Assembly (NCBI GenBank): GCA_964480125.1
Contig: CAYZNV010000001.1
Location: forward strand, 3,736-67,735
Direction: 5' to 3'
DNA: 64,000 bases
DNA from: an uncultured archaeon
Lineage (GTDB): Archaea; Iainarchaeota; Iainarchaeia; Iainarchaeales; VGJJ01
Below the pieces are notes generated by a model. It was not told the DNA's origin, did not search any database, and saw only the letters and a list, made by a program, of their open reading frames with translations. The position numbers and the translations under genes were made by a program. Below are positions 22,082 through 64,000 of the stretch, in pieces (the stretch's first letter is position 1; every line of letters begins with the position of its first letter).

Positions 22082-22084
22082 ACA

Positions 22085-33983: not shown

Positions 33984-34014
33984 TTAAGGGCATTTCCTTG
34001 GATGCATCTAGTGT

Positions 34015-34503: not shown

Positions 34504-34535
34504 TTTCAGTATTTACAATACAATCCAAAAAAGCT

Positions 34536-34955: not shown

Positions 34956-35008
34956 GCCAATTCACTCCCAACTTGCAAGTGTATGAACTACTGTTAATAA
35001 ACGCAAAA

Positions 35009-35359: not shown

Positions 35360-38066
35360 CTAATTGACATATATAATTATTACTCATAATCCGACCAACT
35401 GGTTGCGGTAAAAGAGCATAGCTGGTTGAATAGTTTGAACTTGATACCTCCCCACCAGCATAACCCAAACTATATTGAATAGTAACTAAAAGATGGCTGA
35501 TATCATAAGATAGCACATTATTCTGATTTCTATCAACGATATTAACAACATCTACGTCTTGGAAATATGGAATTGCAAGAGCAAAGTTCCTGTCACTTGT
35601 AACAAGCGAATTGGCTTCAGGTAAAATGGAGCCATTACTATCATGAAGTGGCGCCCCTAAAATTCCAATTGGCGGGCTGTAGTTATAATCATACAAGAGG
35701 TTGCCATCACTTGATTTAAGTTGAATTGAATAATTTGCATCATCCGATTGAGGAATCTCTCCAGCAATACCAGGAACAAGCGATGCAGCCAACACAGTCA
35801 TTTGACCATCCTTTTGCATAATGGAAAGAACGAATGTGTAAAAATCCTTAATGAGTGGAGATGTAGGTGGATAAAAAGTAATGTCGGCTAGTAGCTCATT
35901 TTCATTTACTTGGCCAAATTCATGACGCGGATTGAAATGACTACCCATTAATGTATTGGTATCATACGCTCGATACCAAGAATCGAAATAACAGGGTGAA
36001 AAACAACCTGTGCCTGGAATTGAAGACCATTTTGAACAAACAGGCGATTCAGTACAATTCGCCAATGTACCTGCCGATACGTTCGTAGTGTTACCCGTCC
36101 AATATTCATCCCACAATCCGCCAAAACTATGACCAAACTCGTGACTAAAAACGCGTTGTAACTCATCTATATTATCTGCTATACCAAAACATCCAGCTGT
36201 TCCGCTTCCATTACAGTCTGGATTTGAAAGATTAACATCTACTGGAAAATTACATGTTCCTGCAAATTCACATCCTAATAGTACATAATTCATATGCGTT
36301 CCATTACTTGTAATATTTCGTAAAAAGTCAACTTCTGGGGGCAAACTATACGATCCAAAGCGCGGAGTTAATGAAAGAAGTGAAAATTCATTTCCAAAGG
36401 GACAAACTTCTTTGGCACGGCCATTTACTATTGCATTGTTAAAATGGCCAGAACCGTCTAATTGATAGGCATTGTATTCATCTACCATCCAGACGTTGAA
36501 TTTTGTTTTATTTGATTTAAATGGTTCAAAGGAAAATAGACCATTTTGATCGCTACTGTAATTAATAACATAATTTATTGCGTATTCGAATTGGTTTTTA
36601 TCTTCAAATCCACTTCCAATGAAAACCAAATCAATTTTTTGAGACGGTTCACCGTTATTGATTACTTGTCGACACAGAGTATTATCAGAAAATCTGGGAC
36701 TGTAATATCTGAAATTATCTAATGCGACAACGGAGTAAGTGGAAGTCACATAGATACTGCCGCTCTGGTTTGGAATGATAAAATTAATATCATTCTGGAC
36801 AGGCAAACTCGAGAGCAACCCCCCATAGATTTGAGTATCAGGCGACCCATCGCTGGGATCAAAATAAATCCTGAACGTACAATTAGCTGGATTAAAGTGA
36901 TTACAGCTCTTGTGAATAACGTCAAAGAACATTCTCCCACCATTCATTGTGTAACTTGAACGCAATGAATCGGAAGTCGTAGTACTATCCCCCATTGCCA
37001 CAAAAAAACGACCATCATCCACATACATATGATTGGGGATTTTTTCACGAACAAACTTAACAACGCCACTAGCCACCGTCCAACCACTAGGAGGAGTCTG
37101 AGTATACCCCAGCGTACCACCCATCGTGTAAACTCCGCCATACGTGTCCGGAATAACTCCCTCAAATGAACCGCTTAGAATTGCAGTATGACGATTCACA
37201 TGAACAGTATTTTGACCATACAAATCACGATTGGAAACTCCATCACACGAAACATAATAACTCACATCCCGAGAATCACCGCTAGTAATGTCCAACGAGA
37301 TATTGCCTGTACGATAGATTTCATTCCCAACATAAGAAGTAGAATGCGATAAATTATCTGTTTCATTGAACACCGTGCAAGTAGCCCCAGAGGGATAATT
37401 TACATCAATCGTAAAAGACTCTCCTGCTTCAATATGGTCTACAAAAGGACTAGAATCATTATCAACTAACAAGGGATAACGCTGAAAGCGAAAATTATCC
37501 AACGCGAAATTAACTAACGTAAATGTTCCTCCAGAACGAAATGCCGCAAGCGAGAATCGACCATCAACATTGGGAAAATTGACGTCGTATGTTTGTTTTG
37601 GGCTCGCATTGGTCAACACCAAGACAGTGAATGAATCTGCTTTATTCGCATCTACTGGATTGTAGTTGAGTCTCAGTTGAGAAGTACTATTCCAAAAGCT
37701 GCTATTTCCGATTCCATTCAAATCAAATAATATTCTTCCAGCCCTAAAGATATCGGGGTGAGATAATACGGTGAAGTTATTGCTGGTGGTACTCGTAGTC
37801 CCACACACAAAAATATTTCCGTCAGTTGGATAGCTCCCTGCATTGCGATCAAAATAACGAATGTGTGTGCCACCAACACTTTCACCATCAACCCAAGTCG
37901 AAACCGTTTCACAAAAAGGCTTATTGGAAACCAAACTCCCGCAGCTTTCAGCGCTAGCCGTTGAACATGACTCAAATGAACCATTTGTGATTAATGGATA
38001 TGGCTGGGCAAAAGCACTGGAAGAAAAAATAAAGATGAATAAGAAAAATAACCAATAACCCTTCAT
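35337..38066 (-). CDS. Large secreted zinc metalloprotease (HExxHxxGxxD type; M64/snapalysin-like motif)
   Basis: Signal peptide MKGYWLFFLFIFIFSSSAFAQ. VFSHEFGHSFGGLWDEY zinc-binding motif. 909 aa, rich in N-x-S/T sequons, with predicted beta-rich repeats. Confidence 0.7.
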   Translation of the reverse strand: MKGYWLFFLFIFIFSSSAFAQPYPLITNGSFESCSTASAESCGSLVSNKPFCETVSTWVDGESVGGTHIRYFDRNAGSYPTDGNIFVCGTTSTTSNNFTVLSHPDIFRAGRILFDLNGIGNSSFWNSTSQLRLNYNPVDANKADSFTVLVLTNASPKQTYDVNFPNVDGRFSLAAFRSGGTFTLVNFALDNFRFQRYPLLVDNDSSPFVDHIEAGESFTIDVNYPSGATCTVFNETDNLSHSTSYVGNEIYRTGNISLDITSGDSRDVSYYVSCDGVSNRDLYGQNTVHVNRHTAILSGSFEGVIPDTYGGVYTMGGTLGYTQTPPSGWTVASGVVKFVREKIPNHMYVDDGRFFVAMGDSTTTSDSLRSSYTMNGGRMFFDVIHKSCNHFNPANCTFRIYFDPSDGSPDTQIYGGLLSSLPVQNDINFIIPNQSGSIYVTSTYSVVALDNFRYYSPRFSDNTLCRQVINNGEPSQKIDLVFIGSGFEDKNQFEYAINYVINYSSDQNGLFSFEPFKSNKTKFNVWMVDEYNAYQLDGSGHFNNAIVNGRAKEVCPFGNEFSLLSLTPRFGSYSLPPEVDFLRNITSNGTHMNYVLLGCEFAGTCNFPVDVNLSNPDCNGSGTAGCFGIADNIDELQRVFSHEFGHSFGGLWDEYWTGNTTNVSAGTLANCTESPVCSKWSSIPGTGCFSPCYFDSWYRAYDTNTLMGSHFNPRHEFGQVNENELLADITFYPPTSPLIKDFYTFVLSIMQKDGQMTVLAASLVPGIAGEIPQSDDANYSIQLKSSDGNLLYDYNYSPPIGILGAPLHDSNGSILPEANSLVTSDRNFALAIPYFQDVDVVNIVDRNQNNVLSYDISHLLVTIQYSLGYAGGEVSSSNYSTSYALLPQPVGRIMSNNYICQLGGVLHGE

Positions 38067-38884
38067 GCAACCACCTTCTCAATAGAGGGTCTTGCGACAT
38101 AGCACGCAAGCAATAGCAACCCCATTAGTCCAAACAATAGCATTCCCTCGTTTTTTTCGAGAGTGATTCCGGGAATGATTTGAGAAGAGCCATTGTAATC
38201 CAAATTCCCGCGCACGCTGATGATATGCGGAGAAGCAGAGGAATTATAGAAACGCACATTCGTGTCCACTAACGAATGATGCGTGCCGGCTTGGATAACA
38301 TAATTATCATTAACCATTACTTCATTGTCATGAAACAAGCAATCGGCATCAAAACCAAAATCACCCATAGGATTAGGAAAGCACAAATCACTCGAATAGG
38401 TGTGCAACTTGACCTGCTTCGAAATCTGATTTAAACCAGGATTCTGCCCCTCACGAAAACCACACGCAATCGAATGAGTCACATCCGCAACACTCGTAAG
38501 AGACTGAGAAAAAGACTTATCCTCGTTCGGGCGACCAGGAGTGGCGCACCAAGCACCGCTACAATCAATATCCACCCCACTCGTTTGAGGAACTTGACTC
38601 AAAACGTTAAAATCGCCATTCTGAAAAACATTTGTCATCCAAACCCCATAACAATTCAAGTCCCCCTGCGAACAAGAACAACTCGTACTGGGCGCAGGAT
38701 CAAACGACCATTTACACGTCACAGTAACAGTATCCCCCGCAAGCACGCCATAATCCACATCCGTATATTGGACTAGGCCACCACCGCTAAGGCTGATATT
38801 GATATCAGGCACACTACACGTACCCGCAAAAACTCCCATTGAAAAAAACAAGAGGAAAATAGCAATCAAGAAAAAACGAATCAT
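38063..38884 (-). CDS. Secreted cysteine-rich protein with C-terminal TM anchor
   Basis: Signal peptide MIRFFLIAIFLLFFSMGVFAG. About 14 Cys. C-terminal LLFGLMGLLLLACYV anchor. Overlaps neighbouring genes by 4 nt. Confidence 0.5.
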   Translation of the reverse strand: MIRFFLIAIFLLFFSMGVFAGTCSVPDINISLSGGGLVQYTDVDYGVLAGDTVTVTCKWSFDPAPSTSCSCSQGDLNCYGVWMTNVFQNGDFNVLSQVPQTSGVDIDCSGAWCATPGRPNEDKSFSQSLTSVADVTHSIACGFREGQNPGLNQISKQVKLHTYSSDLCFPNPMGDFGFDADCLFHDNEVMVNDNYVIQAGTHHSLVDTNVRFYNSSASPHIISVRGNLDYNGSSQIIPGITLEKNEGMLLFGLMGLLLLACYVARPSIEKVVA

Positions 38885-39660
38885 GGGAGAAGACCCCCAT
38901 TCTGCTGATCGGAAATCAGGGCACACAAAGCTAGGGCAGTTGCATGCGACGACGTAACATTACGCGAGACATCAAAATCACTCGACCAACCCCCATCCAA
39001 CTGCTGATACGAATAAATTTCATCACGCTGCGCAGAAGTCAAAGGAACCCCATACAAGCCCAACACACAAAAACGCTCTAATTTTTCATCAAGCGTCGGG
39101 GCAGCAGGTTGCGCAGATAATTCCTGGACTTTTGATTGAGTCAGCGCAGCCAATTCAGGAGCAGTTGCGTTCGCGTTCGGACATTGCGCATATAGGTGCA
39201 ATAACAGCAAGGCATGCTCATCATTGTAATTACCAAACTCCTCTGCAGGGTTATCCGAGTAACCACCAAGTGAAGCAATCACCTCATTCGTCAAAGGCTC
39301 GCATGAAAACGCACGAGCATAACCCAGATTGTATTTGAGATTTGTTTCAAATTCGCTAAGCTCACTCACCAAAATAGGCTCGCCAAGCACCCATTTCCTC
39401 CACATTGCGTGCTTGGAATCCAATAACTCCACACGCTGAACGGCTTTCTGCTTGAATTGATAGTTGGGTGCGATAGAGTCAAGTATTGCAATGACCGAAA
39501 TGTCAGTGGCGTCATAGTTTTCCTGCGAATCAAGAAAAGCAACTCCATTGTTAACGGCCGTTTGGAGCTGCTCATTCGCAACGAGCTGCGCATGCACCCC
39601 AAAGCCTGCGAATAAAAGGATTGCAAGCCCTATGCCGATGGCTATGAATTCCCGATTCAT
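38881..39660 (-). CDS. Secreted protein with prenyltransferase/terpene-cyclase-like (QxxDGGW) repeat
   Basis: Signal peptide MNREFIAIGIGLAILLFAGFGVHA. YQQLDGGWSS resembles the squalene-cyclase/prenyltransferase alpha-toroid repeat. Confidence 0.45.
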   Translation of the reverse strand: MNREFIAIGIGLAILLFAGFGVHAQLVANEQLQTAVNNGVAFLDSQENYDATDISVIAILDSIAPNYQFKQKAVQRVELLDSKHAMWRKWVLGEPILVSELSEFETNLKYNLGYARAFSCEPLTNEVIASLGGYSDNPAEEFGNYNDEHALLLLHLYAQCPNANATAPELAALTQSKVQELSAQPAAPTLDEKLERFCVLGLYGVPLTSAQRDEIYSYQQLDGGWSSDFDVSRNVTSSHATALALCALISDQQNGGLLP

Positions 39661-39661
39661 A

Positions 39662-40321
39662 CTAGCAGTTCACCTGGATGTTGATTGCGTTATTGACATC
39701 ATCCCAATAGATGCGACCACAACCTAGCTGAATATCTCCCCCCACATTCAAATCATTGCGGACTTGAAGATAGTTCACGTCTAAGGGGGTTGACACATTC
39801 CCATCGAATAGTTGCTCTGAATGCACTTCTCCTTGGCCGCCGCGGAAGGTTTGAGGACCCGAAAGCTGCTCCCCATTCACATAGAGGCACATAAAATAGT
39901 CCTGATTGAAATTGAGCTTCAGCAAATCATTCTGATCCCCTAACAATAAATTGAACGCCCCGTCTTGGATGACATTAAAATAATTATAATCGAAGAAAAT
40001 TTTTTGAGTGCAAGAACTGATATCGCTAATCTTCACGCCCAAATTACCATCATCAATGGGGGTGTTATTGAAATCAGTAACTTTCCCTTGGAGACTCATC
40101 TTGGTGGGAATGGAATTGTGCGCGATATCCGTATAGCCGGAACTCACTGCAGAATCAAATCGCTCGAATTGCGAAGGAGAAGAGGAGGAAAGAGAGCGCG
40201 AAGAAGAGGAAATATCAAACAGCGACGGGATTGGACTTACCCACGCATGCAAAAGAAAACCTACACCAAAAGCCACAATGGCTAAACCAATAATAAATAC
40301 TTTTTCCATCCCAACCCACAC
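39662..40321 (-). CDS. Secreted hypothetical protein
   Basis: Signal peptide MEKVFIIGLAIVAFGVGFLL followed by a Ser-rich linker. Confidence 0.45.
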   Translation of the reverse strand: MWVGMEKVFIIGLAIVAFGVGFLLHAWVSPIPSLFDISSSSRSLSSSSPSQFERFDSAVSSGYTDIAHNSIPTKMSLQGKVTDFNNTPIDDGNLGVKISDISSCTQKIFFDYNYFNVIQDGAFNLLLGDQNDLLKLNFNQDYFMCLYVNGEQLSGPQTFRGGQGEVHSEQLFDGNVSTPLDVNYLQVRNDLNVGGDIQLGCGRIYWDDVNNAINIQVNC

Positions 40322-44825: not shown

Positions 44826-45467
44826 ATGGTTTCCACACAAGCGCTTGCGATTATTTTCTTAGGAGTATTATTCGCAGGGGCATTTTTTGTGTATCCATTA
44901 CTCCCTCCAACCATTGCCGTACACTGGAATGCTTTAGGGGAAGCGGATGGGTTCGCGAGCAAAGAAGCCGGAGTCGCATTACTTCCACTCATCACTTTTT
45001 TCGTGGGAATTATTCTGTTTTTCGTCCCAAAACTCAAGGGAATGCAACGCATCATGCAATCATTCCAGCGCGAATATGATTTGTTCGCGCTCACATTCAT
45101 TTTGTTTTTGGGATACCTATTCATGCTCACCACGCTATGGAATCTAGGCTATCGATTCGAATTTGTTTCCGCGCTCGTGCCGGGAGTCGCGGTGTTGTTC
45201 TTGGTATTGAGCCACTTGCTCGAGAAAAGCAAACCCAATCCATTTGTGGGAATACGCTTGCCTTCCACGCTGAAGAACCCAAAAATATGGAAGCAAGTCC
45301 ACGTGCGCGCTGGAAAAAGACTGCGGGGTGGAACGATCATCATGCTCATCGGAATTTTCATTCCCGATTATGCAGTGGCATTCATTCTATTACCCTTGCT
45401 GTATTTCGTGGCCGATAGCATTTGGTATGCACAGAAACTGCAAGCCAACGAAAAGAAAACAGCCTAA
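44826..45467 (+). CDS. SdpI/YhfL-family membrane protein (DUF1648)
   Basis: P..HWN..G..D N-terminal motif. PNPFVGIRLPSTL resembles the NxxxGxRxPWT SdpI motif. 4 TM helices. Confidence 0.5.
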   Translation: MVSTQALAIIFLGVLFAGAFFVYPLLPPTIAVHWNALGEADGFASKEAGVALLPLITFFVGIILFFVPKLKGMQRIMQSFQREYDLFALTFILFLGYLFMLTTLWNLGYRFEFVSALVPGVAVLFLVLSHLLEKSKPNPFVGIRLPSTLKNPKIWKQVHVRAGKRLRGGTIIMLIGIFIPDYAVAFILLPLLYFVADSIWYAQKLQANEKKTA

Positions 45468-45538
45468 TTTTTTGGACACAGCATCCTTCCAGCGATGCAC
45501 CAAAACACTTAATCAATCCCCTGCACAAGCATAGGAGC

Positions 45539-46165
45539 ATGGATGCCATTATCCTCGCAGGAGGAAAAGGACAACGCATGTCCCAAGAGGTACCAAAACC
45601 CCTCGTTCTCGCGAGAGGAAAAACCATCATTGAAAGGCAAATCGAATACCTCTTACCACATGCAGAAAAAATCATTATTTCTTTGGGACATCGCGCTGGA
45701 GAAATAGAAGCGTTTGTTCATGAACGATTTCCGAATGAAAATATTACATTCGCAGTGGAAAAAGAACCGCGAGGAACTGGAGGAGGATTACGCCTCGCAA
45801 TGCAACAATCACACGCGGGAAAAGTAGTCGTAGTGAACTGCGATGACATCACGGATATTTCTTTACAAGAATTACAAGCAAAAAATAAGCACACCATTTG
45901 CGTGGCACACCCGCGACTGCCATTTGGGTTAGTGAAAGAAAAAAATGGATTCGCCATTTTTGAGGAAAAACCACTATTGAAAGAATGGGTGTCGTGCGGA
46001 TGGTATGTGTTCATGCGCGAGGAATTGATGCCGCTGCTGCCCGAAAAAGGAAGTTTAGAGTATGAAGTGTTCCCGCGCATCCAGCTACGATTACACCACC
46101 ATGAAGGATTCTGGAAACCACTCAACACGCCAAAGGATTTAGAAGAATATGAGAAGATGGAATAG
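45539..46165 (+). CDS. Sugar-phosphate nucleotidyltransferase (NTP-transferase family)
   Basis: MDAIILAGGKGQRM...KPL glycine-rich loop. EKEPRGTGGG. AGGAG immediately upstream. Start set at 45539. Confidence 0.7.
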   Translation: MDAIILAGGKGQRMSQEVPKPLVLARGKTIIERQIEYLLPHAEKIIISLGHRAGEIEAFVHERFPNENITFAVEKEPRGTGGGLRLAMQQSHAGKVVVVNCDDITDISLQELQAKNKHTICVAHPRLPFGLVKEKNGFAIFEEKPLLKEWVSCGWYVFMREELMPLLPEKGSLEYEVFPRIQLRLHHHEGFWKPLNTPKDLEEYEKME

Positions 46166-46183
46166 GGTGATAAGATAAATAAT

Positions 46184-47302
46184 TTACTTCAACGCATCCT
46201 CGGGAAGCAAAACAGTAATATTTTTGGTGCGGCCCCTTCCTGAAGTGTCGGTTTCGGTGCGGAGCAATTTCTTTACTTCTAATTCAACGACAATCTCTCT
46301 CACTCTTCTATCGCTCAACTCAAAACCCATTCGAGCCATTTGCCCATACAACGCGTTCGAGGGAATGTTTTTCCCACCGAGCTTGAAGAGAGCCTGCAAG
46401 ACTTGCTTCTGGGGAATCTGCAAGAAAGGAACGGCACGCATCACCGCAATCACTTCACGGTCCTCAAATGCCTCTTTCGCGTGCTCCACTTCAATTTTAT
46501 TCGCGTTCTTGCGCTCGGCAATCTTACCGGCTTTCAGCAGGGCATCCAATCCCTTCCGACAATCTCCCCCATGCTTGGCCGCGTGGCCGGCAATAAGAGA
46601 AATAATATCCTCCGAAATCGCATCCGGGTGCATCGCCATCTTCGCACGTTCGCGAAGGATATCCTTCAATTGTGGCGGCGCATATTGTGGAAATTCCACC
46701 GCCTCATGAGAAAAAGAACTACGAACGCGATCATCGAGCTTGCTAGGGATGCTAGTGTCATTGGAAATGAGAATAATAGGAATGGCCTTCCTCCCATGCT
46801 CGGGCAAGCGAAGCAAATCATACAATAACTCATTCCCATCATTCGCGAGCAGCTGATCGAACTCATCAAACACTAAAACAGGAACAAACGAAGCAAACTT
46901 CATCCCTTCCAATACTTTCGCATACAACTCATTCGTGCTCATTCCCCGCGCAGGAACGGGGCGCTCAACGACACGCGTTAACTCCGCAAGAACGGCTTGG
47001 CGAGAATTCAGGGCAAAACAATTAATGTAAACCGGCTTCACGCGCGCAGAAAAATCCTTCAACTGCTGCATCACAAACTTCAGCGTGACCGTCTTTCCCG
47101 TGCCAGGGGGACCAAACACAAAAACGTGCGAGGCATTCCCTCCCTCTGCAAGGGGCTTCAGCGCATATACGAGGGTTTGGATCTGCGTATCGCGGTGGGG
47201 AAGCACCTCGGGGAGATATTCGGGAGAGAGGGCCCGCTCATCCTTGAAAATAGCATGCTCCTTGGAAGCGCGCGCAAACACATTATCCTTCATCATGCAC
47301 AT
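46184..47302 (-). CDS. orc1: Orc1/Cdc6 replication initiator
   Basis: Walker [16 protein letters not shown] Walker B. C-terminal winged helix ...GRGRTKNITV. Confidence 0.9.
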   Translation of the reverse strand: MCMMKDNVFARASKEHAIFKDERALSPEYLPEVLPHRDTQIQTLVYALKPLAEGGNASHVFVFGPPGTGKTVTLKFVMQQLKDFSARVKPVYINCFALNSRQAVLAELTRVVERPVPARGMSTNELYAKVLEGMKFASFVPVLVFDEFDQLLANDGNELLYDLLRLPEHGRKAIPIILISNDTSIPSKLDDRVRSSFSHEAVEFPQYAPPQLKDILRERAKMAMHPDAISEDIISLIAGHAAKHGGDCRKGLDALLKAGKIAERKNANKIEVEHAKEAFEDREVIAVMRAVPFLQIPQKQVLQALFKLGGKNIPSNALYGQMARMGFELSDRRVREIVVELEVKKLLRTETDTSGRGRTKNITVLLPEDALK

Positions 47303-47430: not shown

Positions 47431-47643
47431 ATGACGGCCACACTCAAAAGCCTGCTTGAATCCCAAAAAATGGAGATTCTCCACGCACGCAAGAACGCAT
47501 TATTCAACCTATTGCCGGATGCCCCGGACTTCCGCCTCGCACGGATTGAATTGTTTGATTTGCTTACCCAAATCGAGCGCAGCAAACATTTTACCATGCC
47601 AGAAGTACCCCACTTCAATTTGGGAATTCCCAGCATGGCATAG
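47431..47643 (+). CDS. Small hypothetical protein (70 aa)
   Basis: GGTGA 7 nt upstream of the ATG, the same RBS geometry as the surface-protein gene. Helical sequence. Confidence 0.3.
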   Translation: MTATLKSLLESQKMEILHARKNALFNLLPDAPDFRLARIELFDLLTQIERSKHFTMPEVPHFNLGIPSMA

Positions 47644-47697
47644 ACACTTACAAGAGAAAATGAACAAAAAAAGGCTCACAATCCAGAAATAACATCA

Positions 47698-47742
47698 GGT
47701 ATTGCTTGCAATACCTGTTCTCGGTCCGCACGGACGAAACCG
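47698..47742 (+). repeat. Composite intergenic element, copy A: palindrome GGTATTGC-TT-GCAATACC plus ORB-like CTCGGTCCGCACGGACGAAACCG, in the orc1/cdc6 upstream region
   Basis: 23-nt motif matches copy B at 22 of 23 positions in reverse complement. Dyad GTCCG-CA-CGGAC followed by GAAAC recalls the archaeal origin-recognition-box architecture. Confidence 0.45.
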
Positions 47743-47813: not shown

Positions 47814-48002
47814 TTATTTTTTGCGCTTATTCTGCAATAACTCTCTTTCCCCAAACATCAAAATAAAGAAAATAGTAATCACGCTCAAACCCGTTGAGAA
47901 ATAGTGCAAGGGCAAGCGAAACGTCGTGAAAATAACCGCCCACCCAAAAAGAATAGCAATCGTAATGAGTGCGGCCCGCATCGCGGCATGGAGTTTCTGC
48001 AT
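47814..48002 (-). CDS. Small 2-TM membrane protein (doubtful)
   Basis: MQKLHAAMRAALITIAILFGWAVIF... inner start of a longer track ORF that otherwise overlaps the neighbouring gene. Confidence 0.25.
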   Translation of the reverse strand: MQKLHAAMRAALITIAILFGWAVIFTTFRLPLHYFSTGLSVITIFFILMFGERELLQNKRKK

Positions 48003-48087
48003 AGGTGGAAAGAACAAAAGGGGGAATAAAAGCTTTCTCAAAAAATTCTCCCTAGGTTTAAAGCCGTTCTGGGAAAAACAAAGAAGC

Positions 48088-48666
48088 ATGCGCGGGTTCG
48101 TTTCATTCGTGTTGCTCGTGTTAATCGCAAGCGTGGGAATCAGCCAATACGCCCTACAATCCACGCATCACGCCCCTCTAACAAAGGGAATAGAAATACA
48201 ATCTCTCGCAGCCCAGCGAAGCCAACTTGAACAAGGAATGGATCGCATCATCACCGAAGAACTACGCACAGGGATGCAACAACAATTACCCTCCGAGCAA
48301 ATCAAAACCCACATCAATAGCGCGCTCGCACTTTACCTCTACGAGCAGCAGCAACACATCTCACTTCCTATGCGCATGCAAGCAGGATTTGCAACGATGC
48401 AAACCACCCATTATCTTTCACTTGCACAAGCGCCATTACAACCCCTTTCAACCCAAACCCTCAACGCGTACTCGCATGTGTTTGTTCTTCCATTGAATCA
48501 AACCCAGCAGTATGGAGAATATACCTACACCGGAGGCGCGTTTGGCACAAACATTTTGCTGGCAAAACTCACCACAGCCGAAAGCGCAACCATTGCGGCA
48601 TTACCGAGCGGGTATCGCATTTGCGTGCTTGATGCAATCGGAGAAGTCCCCTGCGTTGCAGGATAA
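48088..48666 (+). CDS. Class III signal peptide (type IV pilin-like) protein
   Basis: MRG-FVSFVLLVLIASVGI: charged N-terminus, Gly, then a hydrophobic stretch. Start chosen at 48088 inside the longer track ORF. Confidence 0.4.
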   Translation: MRGFVSFVLLVLIASVGISQYALQSTHHAPLTKGIEIQSLAAQRSQLEQGMDRIITEELRTGMQQQLPSEQIKTHINSALALYLYEQQQHISLPMRMQAGFATMQTTHYLSLAQAPLQPLSTQTLNAYSHVFVLPLNQTQQYGEYTYTGGAFGTNILLAKLTTAESATIAALPSGYRICVLDAIGEVPCVAG

Positions 48667-48677
48667 GAGGAAAAAAA

Positions 48678-48956
48678 ATGCACACGCTCGAAACCATCCT
48701 CTGCGCATTGGCACTCATGGCTTGTTTAGGATTACTCGCAGAACCCATTCTTTCCCACCAAGCAAAACTCACTCAAGCGAAAAATGCAATGGAATCACGC
48801 TATGAAGCACTCCAGTGCAGCGCGGAATGGGATTATGCACTCGCGTCATTTGTGCAAACAACAACAGGAGGATGTAGCGATTATTCCTATGCCCTGCACG
48901 CGAATGGAAACCCATTCACCACCCTAATGGGAGGAGACTCCAACCACTATGAATAG
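48678..48956 (+). CDS. Small hydrophobic-N-terminus protein, possibly pilin-like
   Basis: MHTLETILCALALMACLGLLA. Confidence 0.3.
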   Translation: MHTLETILCALALMACLGLLAEPILSHQAKLTQAKNAMESRYEALQCSAEWDYALASFVQTTTGGCSDYSYALHANGNPFTTLMGGDSNHYE

Positions 48957-49434
48957 TCACATTCACAAAAACGAACAACGAGGACAATTCCACGCGCTTG
49001 AAATTATCCTCGTATTCTTGGGATGGATGATATTACTTGCTGGAGTATGGAGTAGTAGCACCACCATCCTTCACCAGCAAGAAAATCAATTCCTCCAAGA
49101 AAAAGCATTCGCACGCGCCCAAGCCCAAGCACACACGCTTATCGAGCAGCATCATACGAATCCCTGGAACGGGTGTGCATTATTTGATCATGCAAAGAAA
49201 CGCACGCGCGGACATATTATCGAAAAAACATGCATGCAAGAACTTACCCCCACTACTCCCACGCAAGGCGTACGCGAAGTATATGTGCGAACGCAAACGG
49301 GAAAAGAAATATTCTTCGCCGTGTCCACCATATCGCCCACACAAGAAGAAAATTGCGCCGCAATTGAACGAATTATACGCATCCACGAAACGAATGAGAT
49401 TGCATTGCTGGGAGTGATCAGCTGTGCCGAATGA
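48949..49434 (+). CDS. Class III signal peptide (pilin-like) protein
   Basis: ...EQRGQFHALEIILVFLGWMILLAGV. Confidence 0.4.
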   Translation: MNSHIHKNEQRGQFHALEIILVFLGWMILLAGVWSSSTTILHQQENQFLQEKAFARAQAQAHTLIEQHHTNPWNGCALFDHAKKRTRGHIIEKTCMQELTPTTPTQGVREVYVRTQTGKEIFFAVSTISPTQEENCAAIERIIRIHETNEIALLGVISCAE

Positions 49435-49741
49435 AAAAGGAATATTCTGGGCATTCGAATTAGGAATAGGACTACTCATCCTGAGCACGCTCTTCATTGC
49501 ACAACCCACCCAAACGCCATCGCACGCAGCAGAGCTCGCAGGCCAATTATGCCTTGATTTGCAGGAAATGTGGATGCAAGGAGAAGAGCTTGAAGCTGTC
49601 ATCCAATCCTATTTCCCTGAAAAAAACATCACCATCTCACCAGGGGCAATTTCGAGCATGGAGAACAATGCCGCTATGTGCGAGGCCACGCGCGTGCGCA
49701 ATGGGATTGTGGAAAAACAATTCATTGCGATTGAATGGTAA
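49424..49741 (+). CDS. Class III signal peptide (pilin-like) protein
   Basis: MPNEKGIFWAFELGIGLLILSTLFIA. Confidence 0.4.
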   Translation: MPNEKGIFWAFELGIGLLILSTLFIAQPTQTPSHAAELAGQLCLDLQEMWMQGEELEAVIQSYFPEKNITISPGAISSMENNAAMCEATRVRNGIVEKQFIAIEW

Positions 49742-50129
49742 TCCCATTTTCTGCGCGGGTGATGATGAGAGAAGAAAATGAGGGATTCAGCGAAGTGGAA
49801 ATAGGAATAGGGCTTTTGGCGATGAATATTTTTGGAGCAAGAAATGAAGCGTGTGTCAATTGCAATTCCAAGTCATTCCCACTAACGGAAAACTCATTGC
49901 TTGCGCTGCTGCTCCATTTGTAGATTATTTTACTCCCAGGGGCTTGGAAGGAAAGAGAATGAAAAATTGATTCGAGCTGCTGCGCATGAGATTTCAATTC
50001 CAACACTTGCTCTTGCAACGCATACGCTTGCATGAGATTGGAAAACGCAGGCGTGAATAAGGCCAGCGCCCCCGCGAGCGCAGCCCAAATCAACAAACTC
50101 TCCAATGACACTTGGCCTTGATTATTCAT
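49722..50129 (-). CDS. Archaeal type IV pilin (DUF361/Pilin_N-like)
   Basis: MNNQGQVSLESLLIWAALAGALALF matches the archetypal [KQ]GQ[VI]S[LI]E class III signal peptide. Confidence 0.6.
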   Translation of the reverse strand: MNNQGQVSLESLLIWAALAGALALFTPAFSNLMQAYALQEQVLELKSHAQQLESIFHSLSFQAPGSKIIYKWSSSASNEFSVSGNDLELQLTHASFLAPKIFIAKSPIPISTSLNPSFSSLIITRAENGITIQSQ

Positions 50130-50131
50130 GG

Positions 50132-50308
50132 TTACTCGATCTGATCAATCTTCGCAAAAACATCCTGTGTTTTCTGCTCGAGCTTCTGCACGCCGCTCGC
50201 GGAAGAAGACTGGAGTTGCGTGACCAACAACAATACCACTGCCACTACTGCCGCCATCACAATAATCAACTCAATCGAAATCTGAGCCTTTGAGTCCAAT
50301 CTACGCAT
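50132..50308 (-). CDS. Small archaeal type IV pilin (58 aa)
   Basis: MRRLDSKAQISIELIIVMAAVVAVVLLLV. Start chosen at MRRLD. Confidence 0.55.
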   Translation of the reverse strand: MRRLDSKAQISIELIIVMAAVVAVVLLLVTQLQSSSASGVQKLEQKTQDVFAKIDQIE

Positions 50309-50433
50309 GCAACACCACTCCTTCCCACAAAGGAAATAATGGCGAAGTGCGCCCAAAAATGCTTTAAAGCTAGGGAAAATTTTTCAAAAAAGAAGCCATT
50401 TGGCGTTCCACTCAAGGGGGATTTATAGGGATT

Positions 50434-51024
50434 TTGGCATTCTCTCATGAGATGAACAACCGCGAATTAACCGACCTATTGACGAGCTGGATCACCCTCT
50501 CAGCCGCATTTGCATTTGTATTCTCGGGAAGCGGATTCAACCTCACAGGGTTCCTCCCCGCGCTCGCGATTGCAGCTATTGCCGTGGGAACGGGCTTTTT
50601 ACTCCACGAATTGGCACACAAATATGTTGCGATTCATTTTGGAGCCAAAGCCGAATTCCGAGCATGGAATATGGGACTGCTTTTCGCACTCGCGGTTGCA
50701 ATATTTGCACGATTTATTTTCGCCGCACCCGGAGCCGTTTACATTTATGGAAAGCATGTGACGCAAAAAGAAAATGGGATTATCTCCGTTGCCGGGCCTG
50801 CCATGAATATCATTATTGGAATTATCGGAATCATCATTGGAGGCATTTATGCCACGAGCCAAATAGGACTCGTAGCGCAAATCGTGGGAAGCATCAACCT
50901 CTACTTAGCGTTCTTCAATTTACTCCCATTCTTCATCCTCGACGGAGCAAAAGTATTCGCGTGGAACAAAGTAGTGTGGGCCGTGCTATTCATCCCCTTG
51001 CTGGGATACTTGTTCTTTTTCTGA
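50434..51024 (+). CDS. Site-2-protease-like M50-family intramembrane metalloprotease
   Basis: HELAH inside a TM helix (LLHELAHKYVA). Polytopic. A second motif region GPAMN..IG. Confidence 0.55.
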   Translation: MAFSHEMNNRELTDLLTSWITLSAAFAFVFSGSGFNLTGFLPALAIAAIAVGTGFLLHELAHKYVAIHFGAKAEFRAWNMGLLFALAVAIFARFIFAAPGAVYIYGKHVTQKENGIISVAGPAMNIIIGIIGIIIGGIYATSQIGLVAQIVGSINLYLAFFNLLPFFILDGAKVFAWNKVVWAVLFIPLLGYLFFF

Positions 51025-51039
51025 ATCGAAAAACAAGCA

Positions 51040-53292
51040 TTAACCCACATAGTTGGGCTTGAATCCTTGTGGAGACTTTACTTGGCGATATTCCGCGTAC
51101 GCTTCCTGCGCATCCGCGGAGACAGAAGAAACCGTCTTCGCGAGGAGCGTGTCGAAGTGCTTCTTGGTGATGGGAGAGGGCTTGAGATCGTTTTCTTGTA
51201 ATGCCGCTAACGCAGCTTCGCGAATCAATCCAGCAAGATCGGCTCCAGAAAAGCCAGTGGTGCGCTTGGCAATGTCCTGCAAGGAAATACCTTTTGCGAG
51301 TGGAACGCCACGCGTGTGGACTTTGAGGATTTCTTCTCGCGCTTTTTCATCCGGCAATTTCACTTCAATAATTTTGTCAATTCTACCCGGGCGCATCAAA
51401 CCCGCATCAATCAAATCAGGGCGATTCGTGGCCGCGACAAACACCACATCTTTCATGGACTCAATTCCATCCAATTCAGTAAGTAACTGATTGACCATGC
51501 GCTCATTTACCCCAGAGTCATTGCCATACCCGCGCGCGGAAGCAATCGAATCCAGTTCGTCGAAGAACACCACTACAGGCGCAACCTGTCGAGCTTTCTT
51601 GAAAACTTGGCGAATACCCTTTTCACTTTCACCGACCCATTTTGAAACAAGCTCCGGACCCTTAATGGAAATGAAATTAGCCTGTGATTCGGTCGCAATG
51701 GCTTTAGCCAGCAATGTTTTTCCTGTGCCCGGAGGACCATACAACAACACGCCGCGTGGAGGACGAATACCCATTTCCTTGAACGCAGAAGGATTCTTGA
51801 GTGGCCACTCTACGGCTTGCTTCAACTGCGCTTTCACATCCTCCAATGAACCCACATCTTCCCATTTCACGTTTGGAACTTCCACCATGACTTCGCGTAA
51901 TGCTGAAGGCTGAATTTCTTTCAACGCGTCTTCGAAGTCTAATTTGGTGACTTTCATTTTCTCCAATACTTCTTCGGGAATCTTTTCTTCTTCTAAATTA
52001 ATCTCAGGCAAGTAGCGGCGAAGGGCTTTCATCGCGGATTCTTTCGCGAGTGCAGTGAGGTCAGCACCCACAAATCCATACGTAATATCCGCAAAGTGTT
52101 CCAAATCCACCTCGTGCAAGGGCATTCCGCGCGTGTGGATCTGCATAATTTCTAATCGCCCTTCTTTATCCGGAACCCCAATCTCAATCTCGCGATCGAA
52201 TCTTCCCGGTCGGCGGAGGGCTTCATCAATGGAGTTCACGCGGTTCGTTGCCGCAATCACAATCACATTCCCGCGGGCTTCCATTCCATCCATCAAGGAA
52301 AGCAGTTGTGCAACCACGCGGCGTTCCACCTCTCCAATGACTTCTTCGCGCTTGGGGGCAATCGCATCAATTTCATCAATAAAAATAATCGAAGGCGCGT
52401 GCTCATCGGCTTCTTTGAAGATTTGTCTTACTCTTTCTTCCGCCTCTCCAACAAACTTACTCATAATTGAAGGGGCATTTACCGAAATGAAATGCGCTTG
52501 GGTTTCATTCGCAACCGCTTTCGCGAGCAATGTCTTTCCCGTGCCGGGAGGACCATGCAACAACACGCCTTTGGGGGGTTCAATTCCTAAGCGACGGAAT
52601 AGTTCCGGATGACGCATGGGGAGTTCAATCATCTCGCGGACTTTCTGGACTTGGTTGCCTAATCCGCCCACATCTTCATATGCAATATGCGACGTGCCTT
52701 CCACTTCTCCTTTCACGGGCTCATCTTTGAGAACGAATTGGGTTGCATCGGTTACTTTCACAATGCCGCGCGGCGTGGTTTCGATCACGCGATAAATGAA
52801 ACCACTACCAAAAACGGTAATCCACACATTATCCCCGCGGGTTAAAGGACGGCCAATGAATGTTTTTTTGAGAATGCGTTCATAACCCGACGCAATAATA
52901 CGCACGTCCTGCGTGGGAGCAAGAACGACTTTCTGGGCTTCTTTGACTTGCGAAGGTCTTACAACGACCTTTTCTCCAAGCCCCACTCCCGCGTTATGGC
53001 GAATCAGGTTGTCCATGCGAATCATGTCCTTGCCCTCATCCTCTGTGCGGGCAGGCCATACAATCGCGGCTGTTTTCTTTGTCCCTTCAATTTCAACGAT
53101 GTCCCCTGAGGTAATATTGAGGGCTTGCTTGGCTTTGCGGTCTAAGGTGACAATGTTCCTCCCCACATGCGTGGGAGAAGGCTCCTGGACCTTCAGGGAG
53201 ACCTGCTTATTGCTTGCCGGGCCATTCGAGGCATTCGGGGCAGAAGGAGGGCCCAATGGATTTGGAGACGAAGGAGTCGGATTTCCAGCCAT
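51040..53292 (-). CDS. cdc48: Cdc48/VCP-type AAA+ ATPase (two AAA domains)
   Basis: N-domain, then D1 GPPGTGKT and IIFIDEID, then D2 GPPGTGKT and [11 protein letters not shown] regions. Confidence 0.9.
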
Positions 53293-57760: not shown

Positions 57761-57810
57761 CGGTTTCGTCCGGGCGGACCGAGGAAGGGTTATTGCAACT
57801 GCAATAACCC
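57761..57810 (-). repeat. Composite intergenic element, copy B: ORB-like motif plus palindrome GGTTATTGCA-ACTG-CAATAACC, upstream of lrp
   Basis: Reverse complement reads GGTTATTGCAGTTGCAATAACC-CTTC-CTCGGTCCGCCCGGACGAAACCG, collinear with copy A. The palindrome arms are lengthened but remain symmetric. Confidence 0.45.
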
Positions 57811-57875: not shown

Positions 57876-59399
57876 TTAGTTATAGATTGGGTAGCAGCTG
57901 TTGGCGCTGAAATTCAAGGTCTGGCTTCCATTCGCTGGAACGGAAATCACAAACTCAAATGTCTGCGCATCCTTCACCGTGTAGGGGAAGTTATTGTTGC
58001 TAATCGTAGTATCCCCATACGTGTGTTCTACTACCTTCACGCTTTCCGCCTTGGATTTGGCATTAGTCAATTTGACTTCTACGCGATTCAAGGTACAATT
58101 CTTGGAAGGATAACTCGTGTCCAAGACCTTTCTTTCTCCACGAACATCGAACACTTCACCGATGTCCAATTTTACTTCTTTGTCTGCGGGAGTGTTATCA
58201 ACGCTATCTTCTCCCACAAAGGTCTGGCCGAAATTAGCAACGGAGGCATACACACGAGCTGTTCCCGCGGGCAATGCAACGCCTAATCCCTTGGACTTTT
58301 CATTCTTGAAAGTCAGTGTTGCTTGAACGGCCCCAGCGGAATAGGAATCAAAGACCAATTCACGCGTCACGGGAATATTCTCTGCCTCCAAGAGGTTCAA
58401 CTGCTGAGAAGAATGACTCTTGATGGTAGTGGGAAAAGCCAAGTCATAGCGATGATACTCACTCACGCCAGCGGAATCAAATGCCGGTGCAGGAGCCGAA
58501 GCCTCAGCCGTTGCTCCGCCATATCCATCCGAGTACAGGGCTTTCTCGCGATAATAGTAAGGAGAGACCGAGAGCGCACGATTAATCGTCCCCGCTACGA
58601 GGCTCAACTTAGCGTTATCGAAGGCAAAGTCCGTATTATTAGAGACATCCGCCCACGCGCGCAAATCAATCGAGGAAGTGTCCTCATCATAGTCAATGGC
58701 ATAATTGGTCTGCCAATCCACGCCATTCGTGAGATATGAAAGATTCAGGGACTGGGTTCCAGGAGACGTAGAACGAATATCCCACACCAACGAAGGCTGC
58801 GTGCTCAAATTAGAAGAATCCGAGAAGCGCGTGCTCACAATACTACTGCGCGCAATGCTCTGAATCCCATTCGAAGTCTCGAGGATGATGTCCCCTTGAT
58901 AGGAGCGCAGGATGCCCGTAACTTCTTGCACGGTGCTGCCATTATCAATGGAGAGCGTAATGCTCTTACCCAAGTGGCGTTGGAGTAATGCCTCGGAGGA
59001 AAAAGTGTCAAAGAGATATTCTTGCTTCAGAATTTGGGTTCCGGGATTGGAAGCCAACACAAACACGCTCGCAGGAATAATCTGGGAAGGAATCTGTGTG
59101 AACGAAATAGAATTTTCTCCCGAAGTCAGTTGCGCATCAAAGGACTGCGAGACGCTGGCGAGATTGCCATTATAGATCGTCAGATAGGGAGAAGCAGAAG
59201 CCGACTGGAAATTCGCCTGCTGCGAGGAATCAGCGAAATTGGAATAGACGAGGCGCGGTTGCGCTGCGGGAAGGATGGGGTTATCCAGCGTGAACTCATT
59301 CTGGAAAACAAAAATAACCGCTGCGATAACGGCCAATCCCACGATGGCAGCAGCGAGCATGGGGATTGGTTTTTTGGAGGAAGAAGGTTTAGTAGTCAT
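57876..59399 (-). CDS. Membrane-anchored extracellular protein (possibly DUF4139-like)
   Basis: MTTKPSSSKKPIPMLAAAIVGLAVIAAVIFVF signal anchor. About 500 aa, beta-rich, S/T/N-rich. Confidence 0.45.
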   Translation of the reverse strand: MTTKPSSSKKPIPMLAAAIVGLAVIAAVIFVFQNEFTLDNPILPAAQPRLVYSNFADSSQQANFQSASASPYLTIYNGNLASVSQSFDAQLTSGENSISFTQIPSQIIPASVFVLASNPGTQILKQEYLFDTFSSEALLQRHLGKSITLSIDNGSTVQEVTGILRSYQGDIILETSNGIQSIARSSIVSTRFSDSSNLSTQPSLVWDIRSTSPGTQSLNLSYLTNGVDWQTNYAIDYDEDTSSIDLRAWADVSNNTDFAFDNAKLSLVAGTINRALSVSPYYYREKALYSDGYGGATAEASAPAPAFDSAGVSEYHRYDLAFPTTIKSHSSQQLNLLEAENIPVTRELVFDSYSAGAVQATLTFKNEKSKGLGVALPAGTARVYASVANFGQTFVGEDSVDNTPADKEVKLDIGEVFDVRGERKVLDTSYPSKNCTLNRVEVKLTNAKSKAESVKVVEHTYGDTTISNNNFPYTVKDAQTFEFVISVPANGSQTLNFSANSCYPIYN

Positions 59400-59467
59400 A
59401 CTCTCCACTAAGAATGGGGCTTTTAATATGCATATCGGCATGCATAGGCAATAGCCTGGGAAATACT

Positions 59468-60880
59468 ATGTGTTCCATCATCGCAATCCATTCAACAAAA
59501 CCCATTCCAAGCAGCGAAATCATTCATTACGCCCAACGCCTGCGCCACCGCGGACCGGATGGGATTGGATTCGCAGGGGAAACACTCCAATGCTTTTCAC
59601 GCACCTATGAAAGCACAGCGCTAAAAAATCTCAGCACCACCTCGCCATGGTGGATCGCCAATGGGCTGCTGTCCCTCACGGGAAAAGGAAGCCCCCCCTA
59701 CACTCGCGCAACGCACAAAGGAAATATCACGCTAGCACACAATGGAGAAATATACAATTACCACGAGCTCGCCAAGAAATACTCCATCCCCATTTCAAAG
59801 GACAGCTCGGACGCGGAATTGCTATGCGCGCTCATCGCAAAATGGAGCGAAAAACAACCCATTGCTCAAATTGCCACACGACTCCAGCAGGAAGTACGTG
59901 GGAGTTATGCGCTGGCGATTCAATTCCAAGAAAAAACATATGCATTCCGCGATGCACTGGGAAAAAAACCCATTTGGGTAGCGGAAGAAAAAAATAAAAT
60001 CATATTTTCCTCAGAACCCATTCATCCACGTGCGTTTTTGCTTCCTCCCACTCAACTCGCAACCGCGCAAAAGGGAAAATTACACCTCACTCCAATTATT
60101 CCCCATAAAAAAATCACCTCACACTCACTCGCACAGGAATGGAAGGAAAGCATGGCGCTTCGCACGAATGGGAAGCAGCGCATCGCCGTCAGCTTTTCAG
60201 GAGGAATCGATTCCGCGCTTGTCGCTTATACTGCCAAGCAACTCGGAAAAAAAGTCATTGGAATCGGCGTCGGAATCAAGGGAAGCCATGATGAAATCCA
60301 AGCCCGAAAAGCCGCAAAAGAAATTGGAATCACACTCAAGTGGAAAACACTCACAACAAAAACAATCCACCAACTAGCCAAAGAAGTGACGCACATCCTG
60401 CAGACGCAAGACCAGCTCCAGCAGCGCATTGGCATTGTCAATGCGGCAACCGCCCACTATGCGCACCAACTGGGATTCCGCTTCTTGCTCTCTGGAACGG
60501 GAGCCGATGAACTCTTTTGTGGGTATGGGGAGTTTGAACGCATGCGAGGAGAAAAAAAAGAAATCAACAAATTACGAGAAAAACGCATGCACGAAATGTG
60601 GAAACAAAATCTTTGGAGAGAAGACGCATGCACTATGCGATTTGGCGTAGAGCTACGCACCCCCTACTTGGACCAATCATTCGTAGCTGCTGCGCTTGCA
60701 ATCCCTGCGTGGGAGAATTTAGAAGGAGAAAATGGAACGCTACGCAAGAACGCACTCCGCCGCCTCGCAATCACAGAGGGATTACCCAGAGAAATAGCGA
60801 TGCAACCCAAGAAAGCCATGCAATATGGAAGTGGTGTCGCAAAGGTAATGGAAAAAAACATTACGTCAAAACATGACTGA
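59468..60880 (+). CDS. asnB: Asparagine synthetase (glutamine-hydrolysing), AsnB family
   Basis: N-terminal Met-Cys (MCSIIAIHS) Ntn amidotransferase domain. SFSGGIDSALVA PP-loop. Confidence 0.8.
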   Translation: MCSIIAIHSTKPIPSSEIIHYAQRLRHRGPDGIGFAGETLQCFSRTYESTALKNLSTTSPWWIANGLLSLTGKGSPPYTRATHKGNITLAHNGEIYNYHELAKKYSIPISKDSSDAELLCALIAKWSEKQPIAQIATRLQQEVRGSYALAIQFQEKTYAFRDALGKKPIWVAEEKNKIIFSSEPIHPRAFLLPPTQLATAQKGKLHLTPIIPHKKITSHSLAQEWKESMALRTNGKQRIAVSFSGGIDSALVAYTAKQLGKKVIGIGVGIKGSHDEIQARKAAKEIGITLKWKTLTTKTIHQLAKEVTHILQTQDQLQQRIGIVNAATAHYAHQLGFRFLLSGTGADELFCGYGEFERMRGEKKEINKLREKRMHEMWKQNLWREDACTMRFGVELRTPYLDQSFVAAALAIPAWENLEGENGTLRKNALRRLAITEGLPREIAMQPKKAMQYGSGVAKVMEKNITSKHD

Positions 60881-61466
60881 CTTCCACAATAGAAGGGGAA
60901 GGAATATTATCACTCACCATCACACGGCATGAAGAAGAAGGCGCATCCCAACTCAGCACAATCAGCTTATTCAGTGTAAAAGGAAAAGCCAATTGATGCA
61001 ACCTTCCATTACTCGCTTGCTTGGAACACGTGAGCGAGACCAATACATCCTGCCCTGAGATGACATCCCCATACGGCGCACAAGCAGAACCACACGCACT
61101 ACTTTCAAGGGAAGGAGAAATAATGGCTTGGCAATTCACATCCAACTGCTGCTGGAGAAAGAGATTCACATCATTCCAGCGCAACCCCACTGCCGCGGAG
61201 AAATCCGCGCCCACAGGACCATTCGGACACGTTGCAGCGGAAAAAGGACCACTCATCTGCACATCCATCGCTTCCGCAATCGCATCCGAGGCAAATTGAG
61301 AATACGCCTGCCGTGCGAGTGACCACTCCTTGGAAAGAGACTGCTGCACAATCAACGAGCGCATCGACTCCTGCTCTGAAATCACTTGGCTCTGCTGCGC
61401 ATAGAAGATGGCAATCAACAGAATGACCGCCATCCCCACTACAACGGTAGAAAAAAAGCCCCTCAT
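60861..61466 (-). CDS. Class III signal peptide (pilin-like) protein
   Basis: MRGFFSTVVVGMAVILLIAIF. Cys-rich C-terminal domain. Confidence 0.4.
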   Translation of the reverse strand: MRGFFSTVVVGMAVILLIAIFYAQQSQVISEQESMRSLIVQQSLSKEWSLARQAYSQFASDAIAEAMDVQMSGPFSAATCPNGPVGADFSAAVGLRWNDVNLFLQQQLDVNCQAIISPSLESSACGSACAPYGDVISGQDVLVSLTCSKQASNGRLHQLAFPFTLNKLIVLSWDAPSSSCRVMVSDNIPSPSIVEVSHVLT

Positions 61467-62828: not shown

Positions 62829-62865
62829 GCATAGGTGCAAGGAAGAGCCGTATTTAATGCTGATT

Positions 62866-63246: not shown

Positions 63247-63263
63247 ACCACACGCTACACCGC

Positions 63264-63995: not shown

Positions 63996-64000
63996 TAAAC

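Follow-up and report, generated by a model that had tools for sequence, protein, structure and literature searches.

A block of six small genes, lying between the orc1/cdc6 gene and the gene of an M50 (site-2-type) protease in an Iainarchaeota (DPANN) archaeon, probably encodes a stand-alone set of type IV pilin subunits (a major one and five minor ones) for a 'system 1' pilus of the Epd/Tad-like kind; we put the probability of this reading at roughly 70%. The window, i.e. the whole stretch of DNA analysed here, comprises 64,000 nt. A preliminary description of it had reported a cassette of pilin-like open reading frames (ORFs) beside the M50 and orc1/cdc6 genes. All six ORFs are present as placed there and independent gene calls agree: the earlier observation is confirmed and its interpretation supported. 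The locus is a lineage-specific case of the already known stand-alone pilin sets of archaeal system 1 pili. The genes, with the evidence for each and protein sizes in amino acids (aa), are the following:

48088-48666, plus strand: gene A, pilin-like, 192 aa (gene calls, motif, selection)
48678-48956, plus strand: gene B, leaderless pilin-like, 92 aa (Shine-Dalgarno-like site, profile alignment, selection)
48949-49434, plus strand: gene C, class-III-type N-terminus, 161 aa (motif, hhalign, selection)
49424-49741, plus strand: gene D, class-III-type N-terminus, 105 aa (motif in seven species, selection)
49722-50129, minus strand: gene E, pilin-fold minor pilin candidate, 135 aa (predicted model; transcribed after F)
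50132-50308, minus strand: gene F, Flp/Epd-like short pilin, 58 aa, or 55 aa from a TTG at 50299 (motif, conservation)

All six are genuine genes, kept together as a block and subject to selection. Gene calling on 13 public contigs with 99-100% identity to the window independently gave the same six genes (192, 92, 161, 105, 135 and 58 aa). Public contigs and metagenome loci compared with the window are designated by L-numbers (L001, L007-L019, L036, L074, L079). The closest named relative is 'Candidatus Iainarchaeum archaeon' CP064981.1 (L007), a DPANN genome of 1.05 Mb which shares ~72% nucleotide identity with the window over the region. Internal gene order is the same in seven Iainarchaeota genomes (the window, L007, L008, L016, L017, L018 and L019), the cassettes of L016-L019 being scored as intact once several wrongly called starts and an overlooked gene had been corrected. 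In L018 and L019 the six-gene block is inverted whole between orc1 and M50, thus the cassette behaves as a unit. It was also found in 19 metagenome loci, including the distant L074 and L079, where all six genes bear canonical leaders. We then used the ratio of non-synonymous to synonymous changes (pN/pS) for the three species pairs among the window, L007 and L008. All six genes are under purifying selection, with values of 0.32-0.43 for A-E (A, 0.41-0.43; B, 0.32-0.39; C, 0.32-0.37; D, 0.35-0.43) and of 0.035-0.069 for F, compared with 0.055-0.10 for M50 and 0.07 for orc1. Homolog searches confined the cassette families to Iainarchaeota-type DPANN archaea: A has only 7 clusters of homologs among 5.8 billion proteins, and a profile search of genome contigs with A retrieved two species only. 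The 44 clusters of F homologs all come from Diapherotrites-type archaea and bear the Joint Genome Institute name 'UPF0333 family', for which a literature search gave no result.

On the plus strand 11 nt lie between A and B, and the overlaps that follow measure 8 nt for B/C and 11 nt for C/D. The gap between F and E is 2 nt, and the plus-strand (A-D) and minus-strand (F-E) units are operon-like and convergent. D and E share 20 nt at their 3' ends (49722-49741). An overlap of 10-20 nt is also present in L007, L008, L017, L019 and L074, and its retention across relatives hints at coupled termination or antisense interplay. The true start of A is at 48088 (MRG↓F..., the arrow marking the cleavage-type site), as its orthologs begin at MRGF; a start at 47926 was rejected as a longest-ORF artefact, the extension overlapping a conserved gene for a 62-aa protein on the opposite strand (47814-48002). 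For F, a start at 50308 or 50299 rather than 50356 is most likely.

Class III signals were defined as [KR][GA] followed by a hydrophobic stretch of ~20 residues, and were examined in family alignments over seven species. The conserved N-termini are:

A: [KR]G↓F.S, no acidic residue
C: [KR]G↓xxxx[LV]E
D: [KR]G↓xxxxxE
E: x[GA]↓Q[VI]SxE
F: [KR][AG]↓Q[IV]SIE

The pilin-type N-termini of the preliminary description stand for A, C, D and F, which carry the signal in the window organism and whose cleavage motifs are conserved in the seven species. E and B lack it here: E has Q at position -2 (MNNQG), with K or R in most of its relatives, and B is leaderless. The window contains 394 ORF frames of 50 aa or more, and a relaxed motif was found in 13 of them. 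Eight of these 13 lie within the cassette or within a second cluster at 60.9-62.8 kb, an enrichment far above the window background. Conserved Cys pairs, seen in A-D in the seven-species alignments, fit an extracytoplasmic location.

Database profiles were less responsive. Against Pfam PF04021 (Class_IIIsignal, formerly DUF361; cut-off 23.7 bits), F reached 20.8 bits (E=3.6e-4) and E 12.2 bits (E=0.19), and A-D gave no match. The DUF361 signature attributed earlier to E and F is there as QVSLE/QISIE-type starts, but both proteins score below the threshold. PF04021 recognises only one of the 20 E-family members (E<0.01) and is passed, with 32.2 bits, by the ortholog of a 56-aa main-locus pilin (see below) in the sister-species contig L014. 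Sub-threshold profiles for the cassette families are the known situation of DPANN pilins, typically unrecognisable 'dark matter' (PMC6393860). That every database family match is sub-threshold would also suit a simpler explanation, in which small, mutually unrelated envelope proteins have ordinary Sec signal anchors or signal peptides at these N-termini and their class III resemblance is coincidental. We regard this as very improbable: a charged residue and G or A directly precede the hydrophobic stretch, with Glu at +5/+6, in five independent families and many species, the predicted model of E has a pilin fold, and an A24 peptidase and a pilus platform are encoded on the same chromosome.

Judged from its sequence, F is the candidate major subunit. 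Its N-terminus is ...DSKA↓QISIELIIVMAAVVAVVLLLVTQLQ... and the mature part of ~50 residues is too short to include a globular domain. All seven species have the same first 24 mature residues, and five of them the same first 29, even in cases where the identity of A falls to 39%. F and three short pilins of the main pilus locus measure 55-58 aa and appear helix-only by length and sequence; F resembles these main-locus proteins at the N-terminus (hhalign). Tiny size, a helix-only build and a near-invariant N-terminus are the traits to be expected from a Flp/EpdE-type major pilin that polymerises. E starts with MNNQG↓QVSLESLLIW. Its model, built on a 20-sequence alignment obtained by an exhaustive representative search, has a mean predicted local distance difference test score (pLDDT) of 91.4 and consists of a 52-residue N-terminal helix and a seven-stranded sheet. 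This model superposes weakly on PilX, PilE, FimU, PilV and PulG, and E is accordingly described here as having a predicted type IV pilin-type fold. Sequence searches of the PDB with F and with the E-family profile found no match.

The N-terminus of A is MRG↓FVSFVLLVLIAS, with no Glu at +5, and the protein carries a conserved C-terminal Cys pair. Its AlphaFold2 model (pLDDT 78.7) comprises a transmembrane helix, a helical hairpin and a seven-strand sheet. Lacking the +5/+6 Glu, A is by analogy a candidate tip or cap minor pilin. C (...QRG↓QFHALEIILVFLGW) has four conserved Cys, and D (MPNEKG↓IFWAFELGIGLL) two. BLASTP among the pilin-like proteins of the window detected similarity limited to the N-termini. 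Similarity in hhalign was also mostly N-terminal, except for C, which aligned with the main-locus pilin I (61771-62325) over 136 columns at 77% probability. The full-length likeness of C to I and the N-terminal likeness of F to main-locus pilins suggest that the cassette derives from an ancient duplication of main-locus subunits.

B deviates from this pattern. It begins with MHTLETIL... (MH(T/S)LE across relatives), without a leader, has Glu at position 5 from Met and ends with a conserved GGDSNHYE; a GAGG Shine-Dalgarno-like sequence is located 8 nt upstream of its ATG. In hhalign, residue 2 of B (H2), the first of the alignment, falls on position +2 of a processed main-locus pilin, which puts Met1 of B at mature +1. 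The gene at the B position has a similar size and a canonical leader in L036 (LKG↓QLSFE) and in L074/L079 (MKA↓QVGIE and MSRG↓QYSIE). The C-terminal HYE motif is kept in L036 and in mid-distance relatives matched by the B profile. Canonical leaders at this position in distant relatives thus indicate that B is a pilin whose leader was lost in this lineage.

Such a composition could also belong to a structure without any external pilus, namely a short membrane-anchored pseudopilus or envelope scaffold for secretion, uptake or cell-cell contact, comparable to the pseudopili of type II secretion systems (T2SS), the Sulfolobus bindosome or FlaF/FlaG-type anchors. Five of the six proteins look minor-type, the fold of A matches no known pilin, and non-pilus proteins also use class III signals. 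B, being leaderless, resembles the uncleaved FlaF/FlaG (PMC4425475). However, the architecture and extreme conservation of F fit a polymerising major subunit, Pfam and NCBIfam scans detected no substrate-binding or enzymatic domain in A-E, and the associated machinery is of the Epd/Tad pilus type. We therefore hold a scaffold without pilus to be improbable, and keep the reading of the cassette as a pilus subunit set.

The machinery itself lies largely beyond the window, in which we found no homolog of the local ATPase, TadB/C or A24 peptidase. The last kilobases of the window contain the following genes:

60861-61466, minus strand: pilin-like gene G (motif scan, gene calls on L009-L013)
61463-61771, minus strand: pilin-like gene H (motif scan, gene calls on L009-L013)
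61771-62325, minus strand: pilin-like gene I (motif scan, gene calls on L009-L013)
62322-62828, minus strand: pilin-like gene J (motif scan, gene calls on L009-L013)
62866-63246, minus strand: Prok-JAB gene (Pfam Prok-JAB, 2.6e-13)
63264 to beyond 64000, minus strand: gene of a 327-aa multi-pass membrane protein, start-truncated (gene calls on L009 and L014)

Contig L009 overlaps window positions 58969-64000 at 99.96% and extends 4.1 kb further. Beyond base 64000 it carries, in order, the rest of the 327-aa gene, a 103-aa gene, genes of two class-III proteins, an A24 peptidase gene, three short pilin genes and TadC. The A24 prepilin peptidase (376 aa, PF01478 and PF06819), 1.6 kb past base 64000, has its Asp motifs TDFKSRIIPD and AGGDVK, and the TadC-like T2SSF platform gene is located 3.4 kb past the same base. 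The short pilins measure 57, 56 and 58 aa. Two of them present G↓xxxxEY-type sites, MDSRG↓QGALEY and MDSKA↓QVSLEY (L009 943-1399, ~2.7-3.2 kb past 64000); G↓xxxxEY is the processing motif of bacterial Flp/Tad pilins. The continuation on L009 identifies the 60.9-62.8 kb cluster as the final part of a complete locus, the main one for a type IV pilus; this locus has three short and six larger pilins of its own. In a sister species, on the same contig as the cassette (L008/L014), there are two T2SSF genes (394 and 310 aa) and a 172-aa C-terminal fragment of a T2SSE ATPase (1.3e-15).

Thus, the earlier statement that pilins occur here without an assembly ATPase is correct for the window and is a window-edge effect, with peptidase and TadC genes 1.6 and 3.4 kb past its end. 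The search for assembly loci elsewhere, proposed at the same time, led to the A24 peptidase and TadC on L009, and to the ATPase and second platform gene in the sister species only. The pilin density, also singled out as unusually high, corresponds to a rich pilin complement, but a high count is described as typical of system 1 loci (preprint 10.64898/2026.04.22.720090), which makes it less exceptional than stated earlier. Two other candidates for machinery genes were discarded. The gene pair at 20966-24115 (676 and 371 aa), considered as the missing ATPase and platform, encodes a LonB protease (676 aa; 22085-24115, minus strand) and a 371-aa protein without Pfam match; the truncated membrane protein at 63264-64000 was considered as the prepilin peptidase, which lies further out. 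Apart from this, the Prok-JAB protein, the 327-aa membrane protein and a small OB-fold-like protein sit between the two pilin-gene groups of the main locus (62866-64000; L009 3553-5274), an arrangement conserved in L014.

A simple model combines these elements. Cleavage-type motifs are conserved, the chromosome that carries the cassette also has a peptidase and one platform gene no more than 4 kb past the window end, and an ATPase and second platform gene occupy the matching place in the sister species. From these we infer cleavage, assembly by the main-locus machine, the major and minor roles and an adhesive function. Prepilins would enter the membrane in N-in orientation, and the A24 prepilin peptidase would cleave them after [KR][GA]. 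The cassette subunits would then be polymerised by the main locus, ~10-20 kb away, with its single ATPase and two-TadB/C platform. F would form the filament body, and A-E would start, cap or decorate it as a priming, tip or adhesive complex, with A, devoid of the +5/+6 Glu, possibly at the tip or cap by analogy with GspK, and B, its leader lost, entering uncleaved or staying at the base. One machine would then serve at least two subunit sets and produce a second or alternative filament, plausibly for attachment of the small DPANN cell to surfaces or hosts. Secretion ATPases can indeed serve different pilin sets (PMC4858521).

Several results weigh against this model. PDB fold searches with the A model returned no significant match to any solved pilin, and Pfam and NCBIfam scans of the six proteins gave no family at cut-off. 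The leader of E is uncharged in the window organism and B has none. The ATPase is a fragment seen only in the sister species, the window organism showing only the last TadC gene. Finally, a cassette of pilins leaves its constant M50 neighbour unexplained. The flanking features are:

46184-47302, minus strand: orc1/cdc6 (Cdc6_lid, 2.3e-20)
50309-50451: F/M50 divergent intergenic region (alignment of window, L007, L008 and L016)
50452-51024, plus strand: M50 protease gene (PF02163, HELAH, FILDG)
51040-53292, minus strand: Cdc48 AAA+ ATPase gene, beyond M50

The M50 assignment of the preliminary description was borne out: the protein scores 42.9 bits with PF02163 (cut-off 27.2) and has HELAH and NLLPFFILDG motifs in membrane helices. 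Its start, placed earlier at 50434, is by comparison with orthologous sequences most likely at 50452 (MNNRELT). The protein is 91-94% identical between species. In the aligned intergenic regions we observed a conserved TATA-like block (CAAAAA.G.TTTAAA.CTAGGGAAAATTTT) and TTTATAG ahead of M50. The TATA-like block, upstream of F and a putative promoter, fits independent expression.

To follow the M50 neighbourhood, a metagenome scan with M50 gave 80 loci, which were searched with hidden Markov models of the six cassette families; 40 of them have at least 1.2 kb on both sides. The cassette directly adjoins M50 in 19 of these 40, in three arrangements: 8 loci resemble the window in having F divergent from M50, 4 have A next to M50, and 7 have M50, F and E co-directional in this order. 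Where M50 is at least 48% identical and the flanks are sufficient, the cassette is present in 19/19. On the far side, L074 and L079 have unrelated housekeeping genes in place of orc1.

These data raise the possibility that M50 and cassette are one module, in which the minimal, site-2-type intramembrane protease trims or turns over the membrane pool of F, clears leader peptides or processes B, so that their adjacency is selected and not inherited. The adjacency holds in 7/7 genomes viewed from the pilin side as well as in the 19 metagenome loci, and it is kept in the three arrangements while the far-side neighbour shifts from orc1 to housekeeping genes. Moreover, type IV pilins, F with its N-in/C-out topology among them, have the membrane orientation that is cleaved by site-2 protease (S2P) enzymes. 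But Cdc48 is equally constant (19/19 cassette loci), and six loci have M50 with Cdc48 and neither the cassette nor a class-III ORF nearby, which indicates that M50 predates the cassette and has another role. In addition, the topoisomerase, NFACT, Cdc48 and M50 region is a conserved syntenic block, and gaps of 80-630 nt between M50 and F in the co-directional loci leave room for a separate promoter. In the literature searched, no paper links archaeal pilins with S2P proteases, whose function in archaea is listed as unknown. We consider such a module unlikely. The persistence of the M50 adjacency through three arrangements is suggestive, but that of Cdc48 persists too, and a functional link is unproven. 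A more specific form, rather unlikely in our view, would have M50 as a dedicated partner of the cassette, controlling the membrane pool of helix-only F or handling leaderless B, the latter being a 'pre-processed' pilin starting at mature +1. If true, this would be the first functional assignment of an archaeal site-2-type protease and a new control layer in type IV filament biogenesis.

Other features of the region are reported here in their own right. No tRNA or Rfam RNA was found in a scan of the window. The orc1-A intergenic region showed neither an RNA gene nor clear origin or origin recognition box (ORB) repeats in Rfam, tRNA and repeat scans. It contains, at 47696-47742, a perfect palindrome of 22 nt (CAGGTATTGCTTGCAATACCTG) and, after it, a 23-nt element, which recurs inverted and 96% identical ~10 kb away (57761-57783) near a DUF4139 gene; both could be origin-recognition or terminator elements. 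The 62-aa protein encoded at 47814-48002 (minus strand) is predicted to have two membrane helices; its identity to the L007 and L008 counterparts is 85-92%, with pN/pS of 0.10-0.18, and it has no Pfam match. Divergent beside orc1, a 70-aa protein (47431-47643, plus strand), again without Pfam match, is conserved in L007, L008, L016 and L017. Its likely counterparts in L018 and L019 (61 and 68 aa) remain with orc1 despite the cassette inversion, and it may be origin-associated. On the other side of orc1 we observed a strain-level difference (45422-46184 versus L001 5231-5935): a NUDIX gene directly follows orc1 in L001, as in L007, L008, L016 and L018, and the window has instead an NTP-transferase gene, L001 being 99% identical over the cassette. 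Further away, the 34000-40321 region (minus strand) has a G+C content of 0.39 versus ~0.48 and encodes a run of secreted or membrane-anchored proteins, in an arrangement conserved in L008. This run includes a 909-aa Peptidase_M64-like metalloprotease (7.7e-10) with a HEFGH motif, and neighbours without Pfam match.

DPANN archaea presumably live attached to other cells, and their surface filaments are leading candidates for making that contact. Their pilins, however, mostly escape standard annotation. The cassette provides concrete, deeply conserved candidate filament subunits for Iainarchaeota, and probably illustrates one pilus machine with two separate subunit sets. Its near-invariant Flp-like F could be used as a marker or antigen, while the minor-pilin set evolves fast. 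The M50 adjacency and leaderless B are two modestly novel leads, on archaeal site-2 proteases and on the entry of minor pilins into filaments, respectively.

Among known systems, four comparisons can be made. GspH-I-J-K and FimU-PilVWX priming complexes likewise involve four to five small pilin-like proteins encoded together, and GspK, like A in the cassette, is without the conserved Glu. In contrast, there is no detectable sequence homology and the A fold is not GspK-like in any search run, and roles are assigned by analogy only. Bacterial Tad/Flp pili share Flp-like pilins of 50-60 aa, the split TadB/TadC platform and the G↓xxxxEY sites of main-locus short pilins (QGALEY, QVSLEY). They differ in that the peptidase here is an archaeal A24 enzyme with an Arc_PepC domain, F has QISIEL and not EY, and the Tad secretin, RcpA and TadZ components are neither expected nor seen.

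Archaeal system 1 is characterised by two platform genes, a dedicated peptidase, many pilins, a major pilin without globular domain and stand-alone pilin loci (preprint 10.64898/2026.04.22.720090), and its Epd-like kind has been reported in methanogens, Thermococcales and DPANN (preprint 10.64898/2026.04.22.720090; PMC4858521). The combination of one T2SSE ATPase and two T2SSF genes was found in the sister species (L014), and only the last TadC in the window organism. Similarly to the Epd pilus of Methanococcus maripaludis (system 1, Makarova clade 1), we observed two TadB/C-like platform genes, an A24 peptidase within the locus, many pilin-like genes, a very short candidate major pilin that appears to be without globular domain, and extra pilin genes at a separate locus. 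The cassette differs in that its six genes form a fixed block, include a major-type pilin of their own and always have M50 and Cdc48 as neighbours, and its families are restricted to Iainarchaeota-type DPANN; the likeness to the Epd pilus is one of gene content. Finally, the 'dark matter' pilin islands of DPANN (Makarova, Wolf & Koonin 2019; PMC6393860) are also made up of small hypothetical proteins whose N-termini look like signal peptides, encoded close to FlaI/TadC genes and unrecognised by standard profiles, whereas ~10 kb of housekeeping genes lie between the cassette and the machinery, and the cassette is conserved as a unit over deep divergence.

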